64,000 nt of DNA from Heptranchias perlo (Eukaryota). Both the position numbers and the translations under genes were made by a program. The number at the start of each line of letters is the position of its first letter. Position 1 is the first letter of the stretch. This document shows, piece by piece, positions 20,111 through 59,885 of this stretch. Below the pieces are notes generated by a model. The model saw nothing but the letters and a program-made list of their open reading frames with translations, was not told where the DNA came from and searched no databases. The stretch lies in NCBI RefSeq assembly GCF_035084215.1, contig NC_090357.1, positions 4,898,001 to 4,962,000 of the forward strand, read 5' to 3'.

Positions 20111-20594
20111 ACCAGAGACCAGCAGGAAATTCTCCCAGGTCCAGGTAAAACAGCCGCTCCCTTCACCGCTGTCCACATGCACACTTGGTCCAGCAGGAGT
20201 CACTGGACAGCGATCGGGGGCAGGAATCCTGGCTGACTTTATTCCCCACTCCTCTGAGTCTGGAGACAGAGTTGATTTGTTGCATTCCTGTTGTCTCCTT
20301 GTCCGAGATCAGCTAAGTTGGTGCATTATAGGTTTGAACCTGGGATACTTCCCGGTCTGGGACTCGTCTACGAAGTCTCCCAGGGTTGATTGTCCTATTG
20401 ATGCTCACGGTGTTGGGATCACGACGAGGAATCATTGCTTAAGTTATTGGATCTTTATTTTCATTGATGTGAAACGTCGCCTTAGTCCACAATATTAGAT
20501 GTGATGACCAGGGACCATGATCAACACTGGGGTAGCCATGAGCCAGCTGAGGCTTTAACTGAGGGTCTAACCAGTGTCATCCTCTCCCTTGCAG

Positions 20595-20747
20595 TGAAGG
20601 TCGCCATCGACACCTACTATTACTTCTGTCCCAAATCTTTTAAGTTCATTCGTCTCGAATCGCAATGCAATGGAATCGCAGACTGCTCCGATGGTGAAGA
20701 TGAGGTCGACTGTGTGCTGAACATCACATTCCAAGGGCAATTTCCAG
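20595..20747 (+). CDS. TMPRSS4: TMPRSS4-like exon 4: LDL-receptor class A domain (VKVAIDTYYYFCPKSFKFIRLESQCNGIADCSDGEDEVDCVLNITFQGQFP)
   Basis: cccttgcag| and G|gtaaag; CxGxxDCxDGEDExxC signature; 4-Cys LDLRa preceded by YYF as in TMPRSS4. Confidence 0.93.
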
Positions 20748-20836
20748 GTAAAGAAAAGAATCACTTTGTGTATGTTTTGTTTCGAGACTGCCCTATTGGA
20801 TGAACGATAGCGACCAGCTCCTCTGTTCTCTTCCAG

Positions 20837-20966
20837 TGCGGATATATGGGCTCAACTCCATTTTACAAGTGAAAGATTCAGCAACCCAGAAGTGGAAAAG
20901 TGTGTGTTATGACAACTGGAAATCTAACCTTGCACAAGTAACGTGCAACCAGCTGGGCTACTCGAG
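20837..20966 (+). CDS. TMPRSS4: TMPRSS4-like exon 5: SRCR domain N-part (VRIYGLNSILQVKDSATQKWKSVCYDNWKSNLAQVTCNQLGYS)
   Basis: ttcttccag| and AG|gtactg; phase 1 to 2; VR..S.LQV..W..C.D.W...C.QLGY pattern; 89-bp upstream intron. Confidence 0.93.
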
Positions 20967-21957
20967 GTACTGAAAGGAATCTTCAAATCTGCTTTCCTCC
21001 TAATGTCTATCGGATGAGACGTCTGCCCTCTCAGGTGGATGTAACAGATCCCATGGCACTATTTCAAAGAAGAGCAGGGGGAGTTCTCCCCGATGTCCTG
21101 GGCCAATATTTATTCCTCAACCAATATCACTAAAACAGATTATCTGGTCATTATCACGTTGCTGTTTGTGGGATCTTGCTGTGCGCAAATTGGCTGCCAT
21201 GTTTCCCTACATTACAACAGTGACTACATTTCCACAAGTACTTAATTGGTTGTAAAGCACAATGGGACACCCTGAGGTTGTGAAAGCTGCGATATAAATA
21301 CAATTCATTCTTTCTTTCTCTCTTTCTTTTCCTTGCTGTTTGGAGACCTGTCACTGATTTACTCCAGCTTGTGGCCCAGCCCGATGATGTAACTAAGGCT
21401 AAAGAAAGCTTTGCGATTATACAATACTTTGTTACGGAGCATCTCAAAGTGCTTCACTCACAATTAATTACCTCGAAGAGCAATGCCTGTTATGTAGGCA
21501 AACGCAGTGGACGTATTTTGCGAAGCGAGATCCCGCAACACCAGGGGGATGAACGAGTAATTGATGGATTTTTGGTGGTGCTTAAGGCATAAATGTTGTC
21601 CAGGACAATTGGCTTGGGATCATTAACATCCACTTAAACAGGCAGACCGAGTCTCAGTCAAAGGATTTACTGTTTAAAAATGAGCTGGTTAAATATCTCT
21701 GTTTGCAAATGAAACAAAGCTAGGAGTTAACGGAACAAGCAGATCAAACACAGAAAGACCTGGGTAGAATGGTGAGTTGGGCTGGCGAGTGACAGATGTT
21801 GTTTAATGTGGACAGATACAAAGTCATGATATAAAGTAAACGGTGTTACTGTACGGGACACGACGCAGGAGAGGGATCTGGGAGACTGGTGGATAGATCG
21901 ATGAAGCCATTGGCACAATGTCCAGCAGCAGTAAAGAGAACAAGTAGGATCGTGGAA

Positions 21958-22260
21958 TAAAACCAGAAAATGCTGGAAACACTCAGCAGGTCAGGCAGTG
22001 TCTGTAGAGAGAGAAACCGAGTTACCGTTTCAGACCTGGAAGATATTAGAGATTTAACAGTTTTTAAGCAAATGCAGTCGGGAAAAGAGGGGGATGGGGA
22101 AGAACAAAAGTGGAAGGTTTGTGATAGGGTGCAGGGCATAAGGGATGATGGTGCAAGGCCAAAGGAGGTGATAATGGGACAAGTATCGAAAACAAAATGG
22201 GTCCAGAGGCGGTGTAAATGGCTACAGCAGAATAGGAAGAGGGAGAGGGAAACATGGAAA
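21958..22260. mobile_element. Degraded repeat, probably a second Penelope-like family
   Basis: aaaatgctggaaacactcagcaggtcaggcagtgtctgtagagagagaaaccgagttaccgtttcag resembles a common shark repeat end; related relic at ~3765-3845. Family call from recall only. Confidence 0.45.
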
Positions 22261-22911
22261 ATCTGGCAAAGTGGAGAGGGTTGCCATGGTTCAGGAATGT
22301 GGCGGGGAAAGTTGGGTAGACCCCAGGGGTATGGACCACCTTACCAGCCGTGCACCGATAGGGGATCCCCACTCCAAGAACCTGCCCACACCTCCTCCGC
22401 TCCCAGTGGCTCTGGTGCAACCGTCCTCCACCTTGGGTTGGACACTAGAGGGATCGAGCACAAATCACAGGGGGTGATTGAGTTTGTACAGAGCGCTGGT
22501 CCGGCCCCACCTGGAGCACTGGGTGTGATTCTGGGCACCGTATTATGAGAAAGACACACCGGGCATTGGAGAGGGGGCAGCGAAGGACAACTAAACTGGG
22601 AGCTGGGATTCGACAGCTGAGTTAGGAGGAGGGGCAGAAGAAGCTGGGGAGCAAAGAGACGGAAATTGGTCCAAGTATCAAACGCTGATCTACAAAGTCT
22701 CTGCATTTGGTGCCCAGCATTGAACAGAATGTTGTACTGTTGTCGAGTTTGTAGCATCAGAATTGCAGCAATGGTCATGTTGGTAAATCACATCAAGTTG
22801 GATCCTGGATTGGACAAATGCGACGGGTAGTGTCTGTGGCTAGTCCAGCAGCGACTATGATGTATTGGCCGGGTTTGGAAGAGTTTTTTAACCAGTGTTG
22901 TTGCTCTGCAG

Positions 22912-23019
22912 GGACCCTAAAAGTGCCCCCGTGGAAATGAATTTGTGGCCCGTGCACAGCATAGTCGACTTCAACAAAGTCACAAACCCTGCTTCCATCC
23001 AGAGTGCTTTAACAGAAGG
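22912..23019 (+). CDS. TMPRSS4: TMPRSS4-like exon 6: SRCR middle (RDPKSAPVEMNLWPVHSIVDFNKVTNPASIQSALTEG)
   Basis: gctctgcag| and GG|gtgagt; phase 2-2, open, bridges exons 5 and 7 in frame. Confidence 0.85.
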
Positions 23020-23629
23020 GTGAGTATTTACTGGAGCCTGTAACCCAATAATGTTCAGCACAGGTGTCAACGAGCTGGGTTATCGATCCTTGCTCACGGG
23101 CTTCCTTCGTATCTTCTGATGGCAAGGCAAGAAGTGTAGAGTTTGGCACTGGATTTTGGAGTGGAAGAGGTTTTTTTTTGGAAGGGGTTCGGGTCCCAAA
23201 TTTAGATTCTGATTTCCGAACGGCTTTTTCCTGAACATATTTCAGAGATGAACAAATCTGGATTTGGGAATGGAGCCCTAGTGGAGGGGTTTGAGACAGC
23301 GTCCTTAACTGAGTTCACCTCACAGCCCAGCTGACTCCAGTAGCAACCTATTTGCCATTCAGATACTGGCAGGGTCCTGCAGAGATGTTCTGGTGGGTTG
23401 AGGAATTCCACGGTGGAAATGGGGGGTAGATTTTCTCCTTAATCTGAGGAAGCCCTTTACAGAATCCACCTGATTCTTGCATAGATCTTGCAGAACCCGG
23501 ATTGCTCTTGCATAGAGCCGGCCTGGACTTGATGGGCTGAATGGCTTCCTTCCATGCTGTAACCTTTCTATGATTCTCATTTCTTTGAAATCAACGGAAG
23601 GAAAACCGGATGGGATTTATAACGAGTGG

Positions 23630-24222
23630 GCAAAACAAAAATCTATCGCATGGTTTTACCGGAGCCTTGAGAACCACTCGAATTGCTTCTTTGATTTTTT
23701 TTTTGGTGAAGTTTTCCAGGAATCAACATCAGGGAAACTGATGTTGATTCCTGGAAACAAATAGCACTGAGAAAACAAATATTTTCCTAGCACTGAGAAA
23801 ACAAATATTTTCCCATTCCGGAGGTGCCCAGTGTTGGGACAAGGCGCTCCCGGGTAAACAACCACACAACCAGCTGCAGAACAAGACTCCTTCACCGCGG
23901 AGAGGTTCAGGGAGGGAATTCCAGAGCTTAGGGCCTAGGCAGCCGAAGGCGCAGCCGCCAACGGTGGAGCGATGAAAATTGGAGAGGCGCAGAGGAACGC
24001 AGAGATCTTGGAGGGTTATAGGGCTGGGGGAACTGTCCAAAAACAGCTCCAGAGATTAAATAACCTGTGATCTAAAGTCGGTAGCAAAACAAAAATCTAT
24101 CGCATGGTTTTACCGGAGCCTTGAGAACCACTCGAATTGCTTCTTTGATTTTTTTTTTTTGGTGAAGTTTTCCAGGAATCAACATCAGGGAAACTGATGT
24201 TGATTCCTGGAAACAAATAGCA
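23630..24222. repeat. ~137-bp direct repeat pair (23630-23766, 24084-24222), each with a perfect 20-bp-stem hairpin
   Basis: Copies identical except T-run length; stem tttccaggaatcaacatcag / ctgatgttgattcctggaaa, loop ggaaa. Confidence 0.92.
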
Positions 24223-24400
24223 AAGATTTCGGAATTAACTGTCGGTCCCTGAATTAATGGCAGCATTTAATTATCACTCCCTTGTCCGGCATCGAGTCAA
24301 CATTCCATCTCTGGGAGAGAAAAACAACAAAATAAAGTTAAATCTTGAGTGAAAAATAAACCAGCCACTGAGCCAATGTTTCCTTTTGTTTTCTGTTCAG

Positions 24401-24441
24401 GTCCTGCTCTTCCGGGAAGATTGTGTCCCTTGTCTGTGCAC
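24401..24441 (+). CDS. TMPRSS4: TMPRSS4-like exon 7: SRCR end (SCSSGKIVSLVCA)
   Basis: ttctgttcag| and C|gtgagt; 41 bp; C.SG..VSL.C motif typical of the hepsin/TMPRSS subfamily. Confidence 0.92.
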
Positions 24442-36842: not shown

Positions 36843-38497
36843 CTCCCCCCGCCCCCCTCCCCGACTCTCCTTTCCCTCACCGCTCCCTCCTTTCCCTCCT
36901 CTCTGCTCCCTCCTTTCCCCCCCCTCTCCGCTCCCTCCTCTTCCCCCCCCTCTCCGCTCCCTCCTCTTCCCCCCCTCTCCGCTCCCTCCTCTTCCCCCCC
37001 TCTCCGCTCCCTCCTCTTCCCCCCCTCTCCGCTCCCTCCTCTTCCCCCCCTCTCCGCTCCCTCCTCTTCCCCCCCCCTCTCTGCTCCCTCCTTTTCCCCC
37101 CCTCTCCGCTCCCTCCTTTTCCCCCCCCTCTCCGCTCCCTCCTTTCCCCCCCCTCTCCGCTCCCTCCTCTTCCCCCCCCTCTCCGCTCCCTCCTTTTCCC
37201 CCCCCTCTCCGCTCCCTCCTCTTCCCCCCCTCTCCGCTCCCTCCTTTTCCCCCCCCTCTCCGCTCCCTCCTCTTCCCCCCCCTCTCCGCTCCCTCCTTTT
37301 CCCCCCCCTCTCCGCTCCCTCCTCTTCCCCCCCCTCTCCGCTCCCTCCTTTCCCCCCCCTCTCCGCTCCCTCCTTTTCCCCCCCCTCTCCGCTCCCTCCT
37401 TTTCCCCCCCCTCTTCGCTCCCTCCTTTTCCCCCCCTCTCCGCTCCCTCCTTTTCCCCCCCTCTCCGCTCCCTCCTTTTCCCCCCCTCTCCGCTCCCTCC
37501 TTTTCCCCCCCTCTCCGCTCCCTCCTCTTCCCCCCCTCTCCGCTCCCTCCTCTTCCCCCCCCCTCTCTGCTCCCTCCTTTTCCCCCCCTCTCCGCTCCCT
37601 CCTTTTCCCCCCCCTCTCCGCTCCCTCCTTTTCCCCCCCCTCTCCGCTCCCTCCTCTTCCCCCCCCTCTCCGCTCCCTCCTTTTCCCCCCCCTCTCCGCT
37701 CCCTCCTCTTCCCCCCCTCTCCGCTCCCTCCTTTTCCCCCCCTCTCCGCTCCCTCCTTTTCCCCCCCTCTCCGCTCCCTCCTTTTCCCCCCCTCTCCGCT
37801 CCCTCCTTTTCCCCCCCTCTCCGCTCCCTCCTTTTCCCCCCCTCTCCGCTCCCTCCTTTTCCCCCCCTCTCCGCTCCCTCCTTTCCCCCCCCCCTCTCCG
37901 CTCCCTCCTTTCCCCCCCCCTCTCCGCTCCCTCCTTTTCCCCCCCTCTCCGCTCCCTCCTTTCCCCCCCCCTCTCCGCTCCCTCCTTTCCCCCCCCCTCT
38001 CCGCTCCCTCCTTTTCCCCCCCCTCTCCGCTCCCTCCTTTTCCCCCCCCTCTCCGCTCCCTCCTTTTCCCCCCCCTCTCCGCTCCCTCCTTTTCCCCCCC
38101 TCTCCGCTCCCTCCTTTTCCCCCCCTCTCCGCTCCCTCCTTTTCCCCCCCCTCTCCGCTCCCTCCTTTTCCCCCCCTCTCCGCTCCCTCCTTTTCCCCCC
38201 CTCTCCGCTCCCTCCTTTCCCCCCCCCTCTCCGCTCCCTCCTTTTCCCCCCCTCTCCGCTCCCTCCTTTCCCCCCCCCTCTCCGCTCCCTCCTTTTCCCC
38301 CCCCTCTCCGCTCCCTCCTTTTCCCCCCCCTCTCCGCTCCCTCCTTTTCCCCCCCCTCTCCGCTCCCTCCTTTTCCCCCCCCTCTCCGCTCCCTCCTTTT
38401 CCCCCCCCTCTCCGCTCCCTCCTTTTCCCCCCCCTCTCCGCTCCCTCCTTTTCCCCCCCCTCTCCGCTCCCTCCTTTTCCCCCCCCTCTCCGCTCTC
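36843..38497. repeat. Polypyrimidine minisatellite, ~25-27-bp unit CTCTCCGCTCCCTCCTTTTCCCCCC(C)
   Basis: Direct reading; source of the 560-640 aa artefact ORFs. Confidence 0.96.
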
Positions 38498-39769
38498 CAA
38501 TCTCAGTGCTGGCCTGAGATTTCACATAGTGCTTTCCTGCCACCCAGTGGCTGTAATCAAGTGCTGAAAAAGTGCAAACGCTTCAGAGGGAAATGCTCAA
38601 CAGAAATGCAGTTGAAAGAAGACCAAAGGGATTAGCAAACTAACGTTACAAGAACAGAGAGAGACAGACGGACAACAGTGAGGACATTGCAGCTCGGATT
38701 ATTGGCTTTTAGCCCCTCCACCCCAAATCTTTCAGATGTTACTGGATATTTGAAGGACTCCTGGTATTTAGAAGCAGAGGCGGAGACTGGCAGCTGTGCC
38801 AATGCTGAGCAATCAAAACAAGGGATTCTTGGAAACCTTCCCAAAAGGTCAAACAACTGCTGTCATAGCAACAGGGAAACATCCACTTGGAAACTTGTCA
38901 ATAAACATAAAGTCTAAAATATCGGATACCCGGGAATGAGTTACAAGCTGGAATCTAATCGAGGGGGTCGGGTGTTTTTTGTTAAATTTTTATTTATGAT
39001 ACCGGTTACCCGGGAATGAATTTACAGGGGTTTGACTGTATACGTCGTACACACACGAGTATTGGGAGGTGAAAAGATGAACGGGGAGCAGACGCTCAAT
39101 GGAACGACACAGATATCTGGGAGTTCTAATTGATGGGCTGGGCCGTTTCCACGGAGACGCTCCCGTTCCGCCGCGTAGCTTCACCCGGGACTGCGGGCGG
39201 AAATCCTGTTTCGCGTAAACGGTCTTCCCGTCGCACTCCTGCTTCAGCGACGCCGTCCGTCCGCGGGCTCACGGCCTGGCCTGAACGCTCCGACTGCCAG
39301 AGCAGTTTGGTAAAATCATGAGAAAGGCCAATAGAAAGTTTTTGGGGGGGGGGTTGGTTTTTATAAAGAGGGGCACGGCCGTAAAGAAGTGGGGTTAAAT
39401 CCGGCAAATGGTTGGATCACGGTTACTGTGCTGTGAGTAGATTGGGAGCCCCATCGTAGAAAGGACATTAAAGCCATAGGGAGCGTTCAGAGTCGATTCA
39501 CCAGGATGATGCCGAGGATTGAAAACTGGAGTTATGAGGAGAGATGAACCGTGGGTTTCAAGGGCCTATAGGCCTTTTCCTGCCACTAAAAGTTCTGTTC
39601 TTACTTGGATGGGGGTTGGCTCTCTGTTTATCGCCCTCATTCCTCTGTGAAGCTACTTGGGATATTTTTCTCATTTAAGATGTTATATAACTTGCGAGGT
39701 GTTGATGATTTGTCTATGTATTTGTTGGGGGAGGCGGGGTTTATATTTGGGATGTGAATATTTCTATAT

Positions 39770-56016: not shown

Positions 56017-57406
56017 GGTGAATCACATAGAGACACAAAGGGGAAGAGTGTAATAGTGGGATATAGAGTCACACAGAGGAACAGTGGGATATATAGAATA
56101 TGCAATGGCAAACAGTGCTTCAAAAGTAACTTTGATCTGACCCCCACCCCCCAACTCTCCCCTCGAAATTTGTGATGTTTTAACATTCAATCAAACCTTG
56201 TTGATAAATTAATGTTTTATAGATTATTTTTTGCATTGTTTTAACCCAGTTGAGCACTAAACCCTGTTTGGTTATGTTTTCATTTGTGTCTGTAAACTGC
56301 TTATACAGAGATAGAAGTACACTAGATAGTGTGGACACATAAGGCAGAATTGGATAGATATAGTTGGGCATGGACGATTGAGGGGATGTTAGATTTTGGG
56401 ACGGTTCGGATGGAGTGCACGGTCTCTTCCAGTCCTGGACTTTCCTGTGTTCACATACCATTACAGGCGAGCTAGAAGTACACGTGTACGGTATTTCACG
56501 CATGATGCACCGAAGTACACATTTGCATGGTGTAAAGTGTGTACATATCACTCCTAGACTACATGCTATCACAGCAGATGTTCTGGCCACTACACCAGGG
56601 GACGCACGTTAAAAAGTTAGGAGCTAAAGGGAAGTCGGGTGAAACCTCAGTCCCTAAAGGTTGATTGAGTCGGTGAATAAGTTCTCAGGAAAGGTCATTG
56701 AAGGGGTTAGAATATGAGGAGCAATTTCACAGGGTTGCCAGTACATTGCCTCACTCGGATCGTGTGCGGGCTGTAGATAAGGCAATAAAATTATATCCAT
56801 GATTCTCCAACCTGTGCTCCAACCAGGATTTCCACCAGGATCGGAGACCCTGTGGTTTGTTTCTGTAGAAAGAATGGATTGAGGGGGAATTTACAGCAGT
56901 GAATTGGGCCATTCAGCCCAACTGCAGCCACCTCTTTTAGAACCCTAGGATGTAGGCCATGTGGTCCAGGGTATTTATCGGCCGTGTTTATGCCAGTGTT
57001 TATGCTCCATACGAGCCTCCTCCCACCCCTCTTCAGCATATCTTTCTATTCCTTTCCCCCTCATGTACTTATCTAGCTTCCCCTTAAATGCATCTGTGCT
57101 ATTTGCCTCAACTACTCTCACCACTCTCTGGGTAAAGAAGTTTCTCCTGAATTCCCTATTGGGTTTATTGGTGACTGTCTTATATTTATGGCCCCCTCAG
57201 TTTTGGTCTCCCCCAACAAGTGGAAACATCTTCTCTGTGTCAAACCCTATTGAACCCTGTTTGAGGTAGGGAGTGTTGAGCAAGTGAGTAGGTGGCACTT
57301 GAAAATCTGTCAAATGTGGGTTCTGATGGCCTTCACTGGTCAGAATTTGTTTTTAATGCATAATTCTTGCATTGTAAATGATCTCAAGGAATATTAGGAC
57401 ACTTAC

Positions 57407-57623
57407 ATTCACTGAGAACAATGAGCCTTATAGTCGAATTCACCTCTTGGTTCTTTTCTTGAGGGTTTTTGAAAAAGCAAGTATAGAATCCTGTATCCTC
57501 AAAATCGACATTCGCCAGCAAAAGGGAGATATTCTTTAATTTCACTTGCCCGATAAGTTCCACTCTACTGTCCTTTTCTTTAATGACATTGGGCGTCTTC
57601 CCTTTCAGTCTGATCCGAATAAT
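57407..57623 (-). CDS. SCN4B: SCN4B exon 3: Ig V domain C-half (IIRIRLKGKTPNVIKEKDSRVELIGQVKLKNISLLLANVDFEDTGFYTCFFKNPQEKNQEVNSTIRLIVLSE)
   Basis: ttttgtgcacag| and T|gtaagt; NIS..L..V.F.DTG.YTC..KNP.E motif; phase 0 to 1 links exons 2 and 4; absent from the ORF track. Confidence 0.94.
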
Positions 57624-58463
57624 CTGTGCACAAAAGAATCACAGTTGGAAAACTTTATTTTTAACAAAAGCTTTTTTTCTCTCGCCCTCCATTCCCCCCA
57701 AACCCCTGCCAGCCCTCTCTCCTTCTCTGCTCAAGGCTTTGGCCTCTGTTTCCTGGCTGATATCTGCCCCTCGCCATTTTTGACTCGCTCGTGAGAGAAT
57801 GGTCACCTCATCCAGCGACGCTCAGGAGGCTATTTGACTGTGGAGGCCGGCAGAGCTGAGCTTGATTCTCTCCACACCCAACGTCCACCTTAATGCACAG
57901 GGGGAGCAAGGGAGGACTAAAAGGTAAGGCGAGTGCTTCAAAGTGATTTTTAGGCAAAAAGAAATTAGAAGAGATAGATTTGATTTAAAAATAAAAGCAA
58001 AACTAGAGTTAAATGATAAAAATATGGAGAGAGAACCAAACGGAAAATAGCAGATGGAAGGAAAATGTTCAACATTTACTAAGTTTAAAATTGTGTTAAA
58101 TTTTTATCTTAGTAGAGTTAATATTCCATTAATAATGCTATTGCTAATTTATGAGTAAATTTATTACTGTAATATTAGTGTTTGTTTCAGCTGGCAGTGC
58201 ATCAGTCAGCCCAGCAAGACCAGTGGAAAAGAAAATTTGGTGGAGTGTAAAATGGGCTGCCCATTGGCTACATTCGAGACCCCCATTCAGTCCTATTCCT
58301 AATCATCTCCCAAATTGGCACCTGCGCTTTCCATAGTTTGTTTATTTTATTGAGGAACCAGGTGAAATGGACCAGGGTCATAGATCTGGGCACACTGCCT
58401 AGACTGAAAAGAATGGAAGGAATCTTACAACACCAGGTTATAGTCCAACAGCTTTATTTGAAA

Positions 58464-58500
58464 TCACAAGCTTTCGGAGGCTTTCTCCTTCGTCAGGTGA
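58464..58500 (-). ncRNA. Minimal hammerhead ribozyme motif (copy C, minus; sense to SCN4B pre-mRNA)
   Basis: tcac-CTGACGA-A-GGAG aaagc CTCC-GAA-AGCT-T-gtga. Confidence 0.65.
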
Positions 58501-58520
58501 GTGGCACCTGACCTGACCAC

Positions 58521-58557
58521 TCACCTGACGAAGGAGGAAGCCTCCGAAAGCTTGTGA
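58521..58557 (+). ncRNA. Minimal hammerhead ribozyme motif (copy C, plus)
   Basis: tcac-CTGACGA-A-GGAG gaagc CTCC-GAA-AGCT-T-gtga: stem I UCAC/GUGA, stem II GGAG/CUCC, palindromic AGCU as helix III. Confidence 0.65.
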
Positions 58558-59036
58558 TTTTAAATAAAGCTGTTGGACTATAATCTGGTGTGGTAAGACT
58601 CCTTACACTTGTCCACCCCAGTCCATCACCGGCATCTCCACACCATGAAAAGAATGGGAGAGTGAAGATGATGTAAATCAGGAGTCGTGGCTCTGGGCAA
58701 CACCAAGCATTGGATTGAAAGGAAAGGGAATACTGAAGAAATGTAAGGAGTTCAACAGAATAGGTTAGAGCGGAAGATCTTGATTTCAACCCAAGCGAGG
58801 AGGTGTAGAGGAGGGGGAGATGAAGGATTCCAAAGGGCAGTCTTGCAAAGGTGAGACCCGTGACGTGGAGGCTGGTTCACGGAATGGGCCCCCATCGGTG
58901 CTACAGCCCATGCCGGGAGCACCCCCTCCCCCCAAAAAATACCCGATAAAGTTCAAGGTGGGAGGTGCATGTCCCGATTCGATGGAGGAGGGTGGGGGAT
59001 GGGGGAGGCCCCAACGAGTGCAGTCACAATGCTCAC

Positions 59037-59215
59037 TGTCTGTAGCTCATCCGTTTTGTTTTTCTGGAATGTCCACTTGAACTCAGAATTTTTGTAGTCC
59101 ATGCAGCTGTGGAAAGTACAAGGGAGCAGGACATCGGTGCCATTCAGTACGTTGATTGTTGGCAATTTTCCAATGTTAACTTCAAGCCCTACATTAACGT
59201 GAAATAGAACGAAAC
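59037..59215 (-). CDS. SCN4B: SCN4B exon 2: signal-peptide end and Ig V N-half (FVLFHVNVGLEVNIGKLPTINVLNGTDVLLPCTFHSCMDYKNSEFKWTFQKNKTDELQT)
   Basis: ttttttggcag| and ACA|gtgagc; LEV..GK..I...NGT..LLPCTF.SC matches beta-4. Confidence 0.95.
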
Positions 59216-59399
59216 CTGCCAAAAAAGACAGTCGAGTTAAAATCAAAACATCCCAACCTTTTGTTAACAGTTCTGATTTCTCTCTCTCTCTCTCCACCCC
59301 CCCACCCCCCCCCCCACACACCTTTAATGTTCTCCGTGAGGGGGTCTGACTCTCGCTGGGGTTCAGATCCGCAGCTGCCAGGAGCCCCTCTGGAGCCTC

Positions 59400-59885
59400 A
59401 TGGTGCAGAGGAGATTTACTAGAATGGAACCAGGGATGAGAGACTTCAGTTACATGGAGAGGCTGGAGAAACTGGGGTTGTTCTCCTTGGAGCAGAGAAG
59501 GATAAGAGGAGATTTGATAGAAGTGTTCAAAATCACAAAGGGTTTTGATAAGAGAAATAAGGAGAAGCCGTTTCCAGTGGCAGAAGGGTTGGTAACCAGA
59601 GGACACAGATTTAAGATAATTGGTAGAAGAACCAACATGAGGAAAAAGATTTTTACGCAGCGGGTTTTTACAATCTGGAATGCGCTGCCTGAATGGGCGG
59701 TGGGAGCAAATTCAATAGTAACTTTCAAAAGGGAATTGGATAAATACTTGAAGGGGAAAAATTTGCAGGGCTATGGGGAAAGAGCTGGAGAATGGGACTA
59801 ATCGGATAGCGCTTTCAAAGAGCCGGCACAGGCACGATGGGCCAAATGGCCTCCTTTTGTGCTGTATCATTCTATAATTCTATGT
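59400..59885 (+). mobile_element. CR1 3' fragment
   Basis: ORF 59400-59801 with RRIRGDLIEVFKI. Confidence 0.92.

Follow-up and report, generated by a model that had tools for sequence, protein, structure and literature searches.

A two-hammerhead fold-back in an SCN4B intron is probably a truncated, head-to-head insertion of a Penelope-like element

The 229-nt insert in the SCN4B intron is probably, at about 70%, a truncated head-to-head insertion of a Penelope-like element (PLE) in which the leader of the element's own mRNA was copied twice. Judged by every feature tested in its sequence, it belongs with the insertion products of endonuclease-positive PLEs. The insert was analysed within the window, that is, the whole 64,000-nt stretch of DNA, and it is flanked by the perfect 12-bp TSD (TGAAAAGAATGG) that an earlier note had described. 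Its parts are given below; family coordinates are relative to hammerhead C3, with 58525 on the plus arm set to 0.

58405..58416, plus strand: left copy of the TSD; its last letters also match the inverted element end, a short microhomology
58417..58504, minus strand: inverted pLTR-leader copy without tail, sense to SCN4B pre-mRNA
58458-58453, minus strand: mirror copy of the AATAAA
58464..58500, minus strand: minimal type I hammerhead motif of the left arm, with C3 at 58496 and the predicted cut at 58468/58467
58505..58516, no strand: junction spacer of reiterated arm-start letters, with a single occurrence in the genome
58517..58607, plus strand: direct pLTR-leader copy, beginning at an Inr-like site
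58521..58557, plus strand: minimal type I hammerhead motif of the right arm, with the predicted cut at 58553/58554
58563-58568, plus strand: AATAAA of the pLTR
58608..58645, plus strand: PLE tail of 38 nt, whose end is the ORF start-codon position in autonomous copies
58646..58657, plus strand: right copy of the TSD

The inverted arms (58414-58504 and 58517-58607) are 91 nt long, 93% complementary and 12 nt apart, in keeping with the arms of ~88 bp first proposed. The inverted arm spans family positions about -8 to +79, and the 38-nt tail is attached to the right arm only. The direct arm has no TATA box and starts ~29 nt below the TATA of full-length copies. The RNA of the insert folds at -161.9 kcal/mol (z = -20.4), with equal stability in 0/200 shuffles. 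The AATAAA noticed shortly after the core was located on both strands; it is kept in 356/372 family arms and is likely the element's poly(A) signal. The two focal arms differ at 2/8 diagnostic and 3/63 other sites, which does not settle how the second arm of this copy arose.

The stub arm corresponds to the pLTR/5′ leader of an abundant PLE with intact copies encoding RT and GIY-YIG, so that the Penelope origin and the autonomous partner suggested in the earlier note were both recovered from the genome. The intact autonomous ORF is 891 aa long and its AUG sits at the 3′ end of the stub tail; the stub is therefore the element's 5′ leader, twice. Both arms match this pLTR/leader, the direct arm ending at the AUG and the inverted arm ~35-40 nt earlier. 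The 891-aa ORF matched RVT_1 (E 2.9e-10) and, at its C terminus, GIY-YIG (PF01541, E 3.3e-4; 21.3 bits, just below the 22.6 cut-off), and the CCHH motif of GIY-YIG is visible as two Cys lying between the two motifs, followed later by two His. RT and EN are joined by a CX4CX2C linker (protein P0003), and the parent is called a Neptune-type PLE on the basis of this linker and of the vertebrate distribution of the Neptune clade. The linker criterion, CX2-5CxxC for the Neptune and Nematis clades, comes from PMC8557442. A search of the PDB returned no close relative of the 891-aa protein.

Partial tandems of the form pLTR-ORF-pLTR, with the hammerhead in the pLTR, were found at L196, L203 and other loci. 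In the protein search, 65 of 33,614 candidates were scored, and many open frames of 850-920 codons were present. A pattern extending upstream of the core gave 221 matches, many of them inverted pairs 0.7-3.8 kb apart, and the interiors of such pairs encode RT (RVT_1 in 4/9 frames, no Pfam match in 5/9). At G000:C42:10570501-10577842, two family matches lie within open frames of unusual length (1669 and 2677 codons), which may consist of tandem copies joined in frame.

The copy number called for by the earlier note was obtained from genome-wide counts and not scaled from the window's three copies. The 3.25-Gb vertebrate genome holds at least 11,955 exact matches of a 32-nt tail word and at least 2,756 places where two exact cores stand head to head within 30 nt, which are short double-core fold-backs. 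The focal junction has a single match in the genome at up to 2 mismatches. Among the first 50 of the 2,756 listed fold-backs, 45 junctions were distinct; those that recur are simple microhomology joins. The commonest is shared by 4 copies whose stem-II variants differ, and another simple one occurs in both orientations to the tail. The spacers of the best 30 genome matches differ, one of these matches lacks the core, and copy length is continuous from about 80 nt up to full length. Since junctions differ among copies and the focal one is unique, the fold-back appears to be made anew at each insertion. These results argue against the earlier proposal of a non-autonomous fold-back family: the inversion is likely rebuilt every time, and a fixed, non-autonomous fold-back family is largely refuted by the sequences.

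A sample unselected for junction was taken from contig C1: 93 copies with an exact tail, in consecutive order, from 90 loci (L105 was dropped as a duplicate of L104). Leaving aside those at a locus edge, 91 tail-anchored copies remained, of which 64 had an inverted arm, adjacent in 57. The 3′ ends of the inverted arms lie at +77 to +98 (48/64 at +82 to +89), and the tails end at about +118 to +126. TSDs of 10-14 bp were found in 60/91 copies and none was found in 21; in tail-anchored copies the mode is 12-14 bp and the tail is about 35-40 nt. Two complete hammerheads in short arms, as in the focal copy, occurred in only 10/91, which speaks against the suggestion that the fold-back is built to yield a ribozyme from either strand or works as a switch.

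The 5′ ends of 157 arms were placed on the family coordinates: 31 lie beyond -300, 12 in -300..-101, 3 in -100..-41, 9 in -40..-17, 56 in -16..+5, 10 in +6..+26, 1 in +27..+31, 27 in +32..+60 and 8 beyond. The predicted ribozyme cut, at 28/29, falls in the +27..+31 interval, which holds a single arm end. A TATA-like word stands at -36 to -44 in 92/114 long arms, its position depending on subfamily (-36 in A, -38/-39 in B/C, -46 in D), and as read from the sequence such words lie ~28-29 nt above an Inr-like word, called with the Inr consensus. In subfamily A, 15/38 short arms end at -6..-8 and 6/38 run beyond -12; in subfamily D, 14/57 end at -16/-17 and 1 beyond; part of the sample behind these A and D counts was limited to spacers of <=30 nt. 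In a separate D sample of 30 arms with unlimited spacer, 22 were short and 16 of these 22 ended at -15..-19. Arm ends that track the TATA argue against random truncation and against later collapse of long palindromes.

Because the arm ends are concentrated immediately 5′ of the ribozyme and move with the TATA position, the template appears to have begun at the promoter start and to have carried an uncut hammerhead. It was thus likely the leader RNA in uncut form, with copying begun at two sites. This agrees with in vitro data on the anole element, whose RT mainly uses uncleaved RNA, begins copying at two internal positions that bound the tail and extends both strands (PMC11167929). Many of the ends at +32..+60 reflect symmetric joining at the near-palindrome of +41..+48, and some templates, given these 27/157 ends, may have been ribozyme-cut, trimmed RNA. 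An extra G at the arm start, a candidate for a cap-derived base, was seen in 35/96 arms and in 9/18 at YA starts. Literature searches, with subscription papers and repeat databases outside their scope, returned neither a start-site pile-up of arm ends nor evidence of two cDNAs for such elements.

We propose the following course of events. Transcription would begin at the Inr ~29 nt below the TATA box and just upstream of the hammerhead, a placement inferred from motif position and copy ends. The RT-endonuclease would cut the target and copy the short uncut 5′ leader RNA twice, reverse transcription starting within the RNA at the two sites that bound the tail, one for each nicked target strand. 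Each cDNA would extend to, or toward, the 5′ end of the RNA, the two cDNA ends would be joined via microhomology or short reiterated pieces, and gap filling would yield the 12-bp duplication. The short class would arise when copying starts in the leader instead of the 3′ pLTR.

The comparison of arms within copies bears on this proposal and on its strongest competitor, in which the inverted arm is made by self-priming: one cDNA snaps back, or an antisense template primes itself, and the tail results from endonuclease resolution. We consider this unlikely. Self-priming has been proposed for rotifer Penelopes in PMC3846280, with an endonuclease-resolved tail in PMC8557442, and it would account for palindromic junctions. 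Arm pairs agree at all diagnostic sites in 61/75 copies, with 27/568 differences within pairs versus 44% between copies; rare letters are common to both arms in 13/65 cases versus 61/4708 (1.3%) between copies; arm lengths correlate (rho 0.58); and several long copies are near-symmetric palindromes. Correlated lengths, shared subfamily and rare letters and symmetric palindromes also fit the snap-back of one cDNA. However, a snap-back arm cannot outreach its template at the 5′ end, yet the inverted arm is more than 10 nt longer than the direct arm in 21/57 copies, the excess sometimes being hundreds of bases (it is shorter in 12/57). Moreover, the arms of 3/75 copies differ at 3-4 diagnostic sites; in L134, L106 and L089 the two arms carry letters of different subfamilies, which suggests two RNA templates in one insertion. 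The longer inverted arms and the two-subfamily copies favour two joined cDNAs over the snap-back of one. A template of antisense polarity, moreover, would not end where the sense-strand TATA/Inr lies. Later asymmetric deletion could blur the arm-length objection, and gene conversion together with later deletion could blur both arm signals.

Slightly less plausible than self-priming is that the stubs are a ribozyme-bearing retroposon with a 130-nt one-arm RNA form and a fold-back DNA form, which the autonomous protein re-mobilises by double priming; each insertion would then have two outward start sites, and the tail-bearing arm would be transcribed without the hairpin. Doubtful to a somewhat greater degree is that the short arm propagates itself as a SINE-like ribozyme element, transcribed outward from the centre and mobilised in trans, with the inversion rebuilt in each round. 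Most copies are short, with both arms within -40 in 44/57 two-armed copies, and outward transcripts would carry both RT start sites and no hairpin, so that daughters would resemble the observed copies. An internal, TATA-less promoter is documented for the D. virilis Penelope (PMC2377424), and therefore a stub might still be transcribed. On the other hand, the TATA position is conserved across subfamilies and absent in stubs, 9/10 loop-II haplotypes with at least 4 arms also occur in long arms, and subfamily D, seemingly short-only, has ORF-linked copies. Under the double-copying of the leader that we prefer, a stub with neither TATA box nor ORF is probably dead on arrival.

The hammerheads were then compared with the minimal type I definition of PMC4209133. 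As claimed earlier, each strand carries such a motif, and the membership features of PLE minimal hammerheads are all present: the CUGANGA/GAAA core, the extra base after A9, G10.1-C11.1 and the palindromic 15.2-16.2. The plus motif reads TCAC (58521-24), CTGACGA (58525-31), an extra A, GGAG(G)..(C)CTCC, GAA, AGCT, T (58553) and GTGA (58554-57), and by this layout the cut foreseen 3′ of GCUU, at 58553/58554, is correctly placed. Stem II of the plus arm has a fifth base pair. Searches with hammerhead models, as had been advised, gave a divided result. Rfam returned no hammerhead family for the insert up to E = 10, with sub-threshold miRNA-hairpin matches only, as would be expected of a motif without helix III. 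A pairing descriptor matched both arms, with 199 matches in 713 kb of loci, which were selected for this element; three block-shuffled versions gave 0. When an older variant, with another base at the cleavage site, was searched for, the 5 matches all belonged to the focal family.

Covariation of stems I and II, also looked for at the earlier note's suggestion, is present between families. The 29 variants selected, drawn from two families, had 95% of cells paired and two-sided changes in 8/9 pairs, a count reached by 63/500 shuffles; their covariation score of 0.58 compares with 0.21 after shuffling and no more than 0.13 after sliding. Most of the two-sided changes were contributed by the second hammerhead family, and variation within the focal family was limited to loop II, the fifth stem-II pair (unpaired in 8/29 variants) and G-U swaps. 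This second minimal-hammerhead repeat family is unrelated, with different stems and an ACGU palindrome, and was located at the following sites.

L083:978-1016, L090:1011-1049, L092:2778-2816, L143:1352-1390, L154:469-507 and L186:2840-2878: hammerheads of the second family

Folding predictions agree with the idea that the long hairpin could mask the core. In the whole insert the stem probabilities of both hammerheads are 0.0 on either strand, and forming them would cost ~61 kcal/mol. The isolated plus arm is predicted to form the hammerhead stems at 0.12-0.16 and the isolated minus arm at <0.03.

The flanking exons of the host gene and the other family copies in the window are placed as follows.

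57407..57623 (about), minus strand: SCN4B downstream exon, best match sodium channel beta-4
59037..59215 (about), minus strand: SCN4B upstream exon, best match sodium channel beta-4
9975-10169, minus strand: further fold-back stub of the same family, with a different stem-II variant and junction
27332-27531, minus strand: further fold-back stub of the same family, with a different stem-II variant and junction

The upstream and downstream exons match sodium channel beta-4 at E 2e-12 and 3e-11. As these minus-strand exons flank the insert, it is intronic in SCN4B, as had been reported, and its left, tail-less arm is in the sense orientation. No partner copy of the element was found within the located SCN4B exons. 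The SCN4B-sense strand gains a consensus-like 5′ splice donor, at 58523/58522 within 58526-58517 of the minus strand, and the AATAAA, both within the hairpin; the donor-like word is not retained in all subfamilies and is therefore probably incidental. In the SCN4B pre-mRNA, the ~90-bp hairpin would hold the sense hammerhead unfolded, and an effect on the host gene is unlikely. Four contig-level sequencing runs over 57200-59400 all contained family sequence (4/4); in the same four contig-only runs there was no insert-spanning piece, empty site, SCN4B splice joint, start or end in this interval.

It is very improbable that the insert is a fixed, non-autonomous fold-back element that acts on SCN4B RNA through its two hammerheads, as a functional bidirectional or self-silencing unit. 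Both cores are intact in the focal copy, and one is sense to SCN4B and followed by AATAAA. Against such a unit stand the unique junction, the scarcity of copies with two full cores noted above, and the predicted unfolding of the cores in the whole hairpin. In addition, minimal hammerheads are inactive as monomers and weakly active as dimers according to PMC4209133, and the anole PAc hammerhead requires the element's own protein for activity (PMC11167929). The other two window stubs are >25 kb from the focal copy, and one of them lies among exons of a plus-strand protease gene. We rejected a MITE or fold-back DNA transposon, which has TIRs at both ends, a fixed TSD length and a uniform interior, in view of the one-sided tail, TSDs of 7-15 bp and private junctions, and a non-LTR retrozyme, the insert being a single head-to-head unit with a TSD and no head-to-tail tandem.

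Several other features of the window were observed. Exons encoding LDL-receptor class A, SRCR and trypsin domains at about 20486-36633 (plus strand) mark a TMPRSS-type protease gene facing SCN4B. The stub at 27332-27531 adjoins LINE-like repeats, and a TSD was not found for it. At 26120-28620 and 23630-24222 lie a cluster of ~63-67-nt tandem repeats and an inverted pair of nearly identical 139-nt sequences that contain small palindromes. A stop-free frame of 943 codons at 894-3722 (minus strand), outside the repeat mask and with no Pfam match, may represent a large exon or else an element that escaped recognition. About 2 kb at 36630-38632 is open in all six frames, of which the two scanned against Pfam matched nothing, and is probably a stop-free tandem repeat.

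The focal locus itself is ordinary, one of thousands of stubs, and probably inert or neutral. The stub population bears on the origin of the head-to-head inverted ends of Penelope-like elements. The copies suggest that sense, uncut leader RNA was copied from two sites. This reading is consistent with the in vitro results on the anole element and speaks against self-priming on an antisense template, and the intact 891-aa copies make it testable. The family also leaves thousands of long hairpins scattered across introns, and these may give rise to dsRNA. Literature searches, with subscription papers, Repbase/Dfam entries and supplements outside their scope, returned no paper on such stubs in a comparable genome.

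Elements of this class are known to insert as a head-to-head inverted copy with a tail. The canonical EN+ PLE unit (PMC3846280, PMC8557442) consists of a pLTR, an adjacent inverted 5′-truncated copy, a 30-40-bp tail and a TSD. With Pen2a_Av (PMC3846280) and the scheme of PMC8557442, the focal family shares the head-to-head inverted pLTR, the tail at one end, the variable TSD, the TATA plus Inr in the pLTR and solo pLTR products. It differs from them in that the unit is reduced to two leader copies of ~90-130 nt at thousands of loci and in that 5′ ends follow the TATA/Inr by subfamily, which is not stated in the available text on either.

The core, the extra nucleotide between 9 and 10.1, G10.1-C11.1 and a palindrome replacing helix III are shared with the metazoan PLE hammerheads of PMC4209133, which also records opposite-strand hammerhead pairs 100-700 bp apart in Schistosoma. 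The focal pair differs from those hammerheads in being 29 nt apart (C3 to C3), in lying in one hairpin and in having U at the cleavage site. Non-LTR retrozymes (bioRxiv 10.64898/2026.07.22.740005) are likewise ORF-less and pLTR-related with a type I hammerhead, but they are head-to-tail tandem repeats, whereas the focal copy is a single head-to-head insertion with a TSD and a tail. PAc (Poseidon) of Anolis carolinensis (PMC11167929) resembles the focal family in its pLTR hammerhead, its two tail-bounding ends and the apparent use of uncleaved RNA as template. PAc belongs to the Poseidon clade without the Cys linker, its ORF begins at stem II, and its RT start sites lie 111-118 nt inside that frame; in contrast, the focal tail ends at the AUG and the focal stub is entirely 5′ leader.
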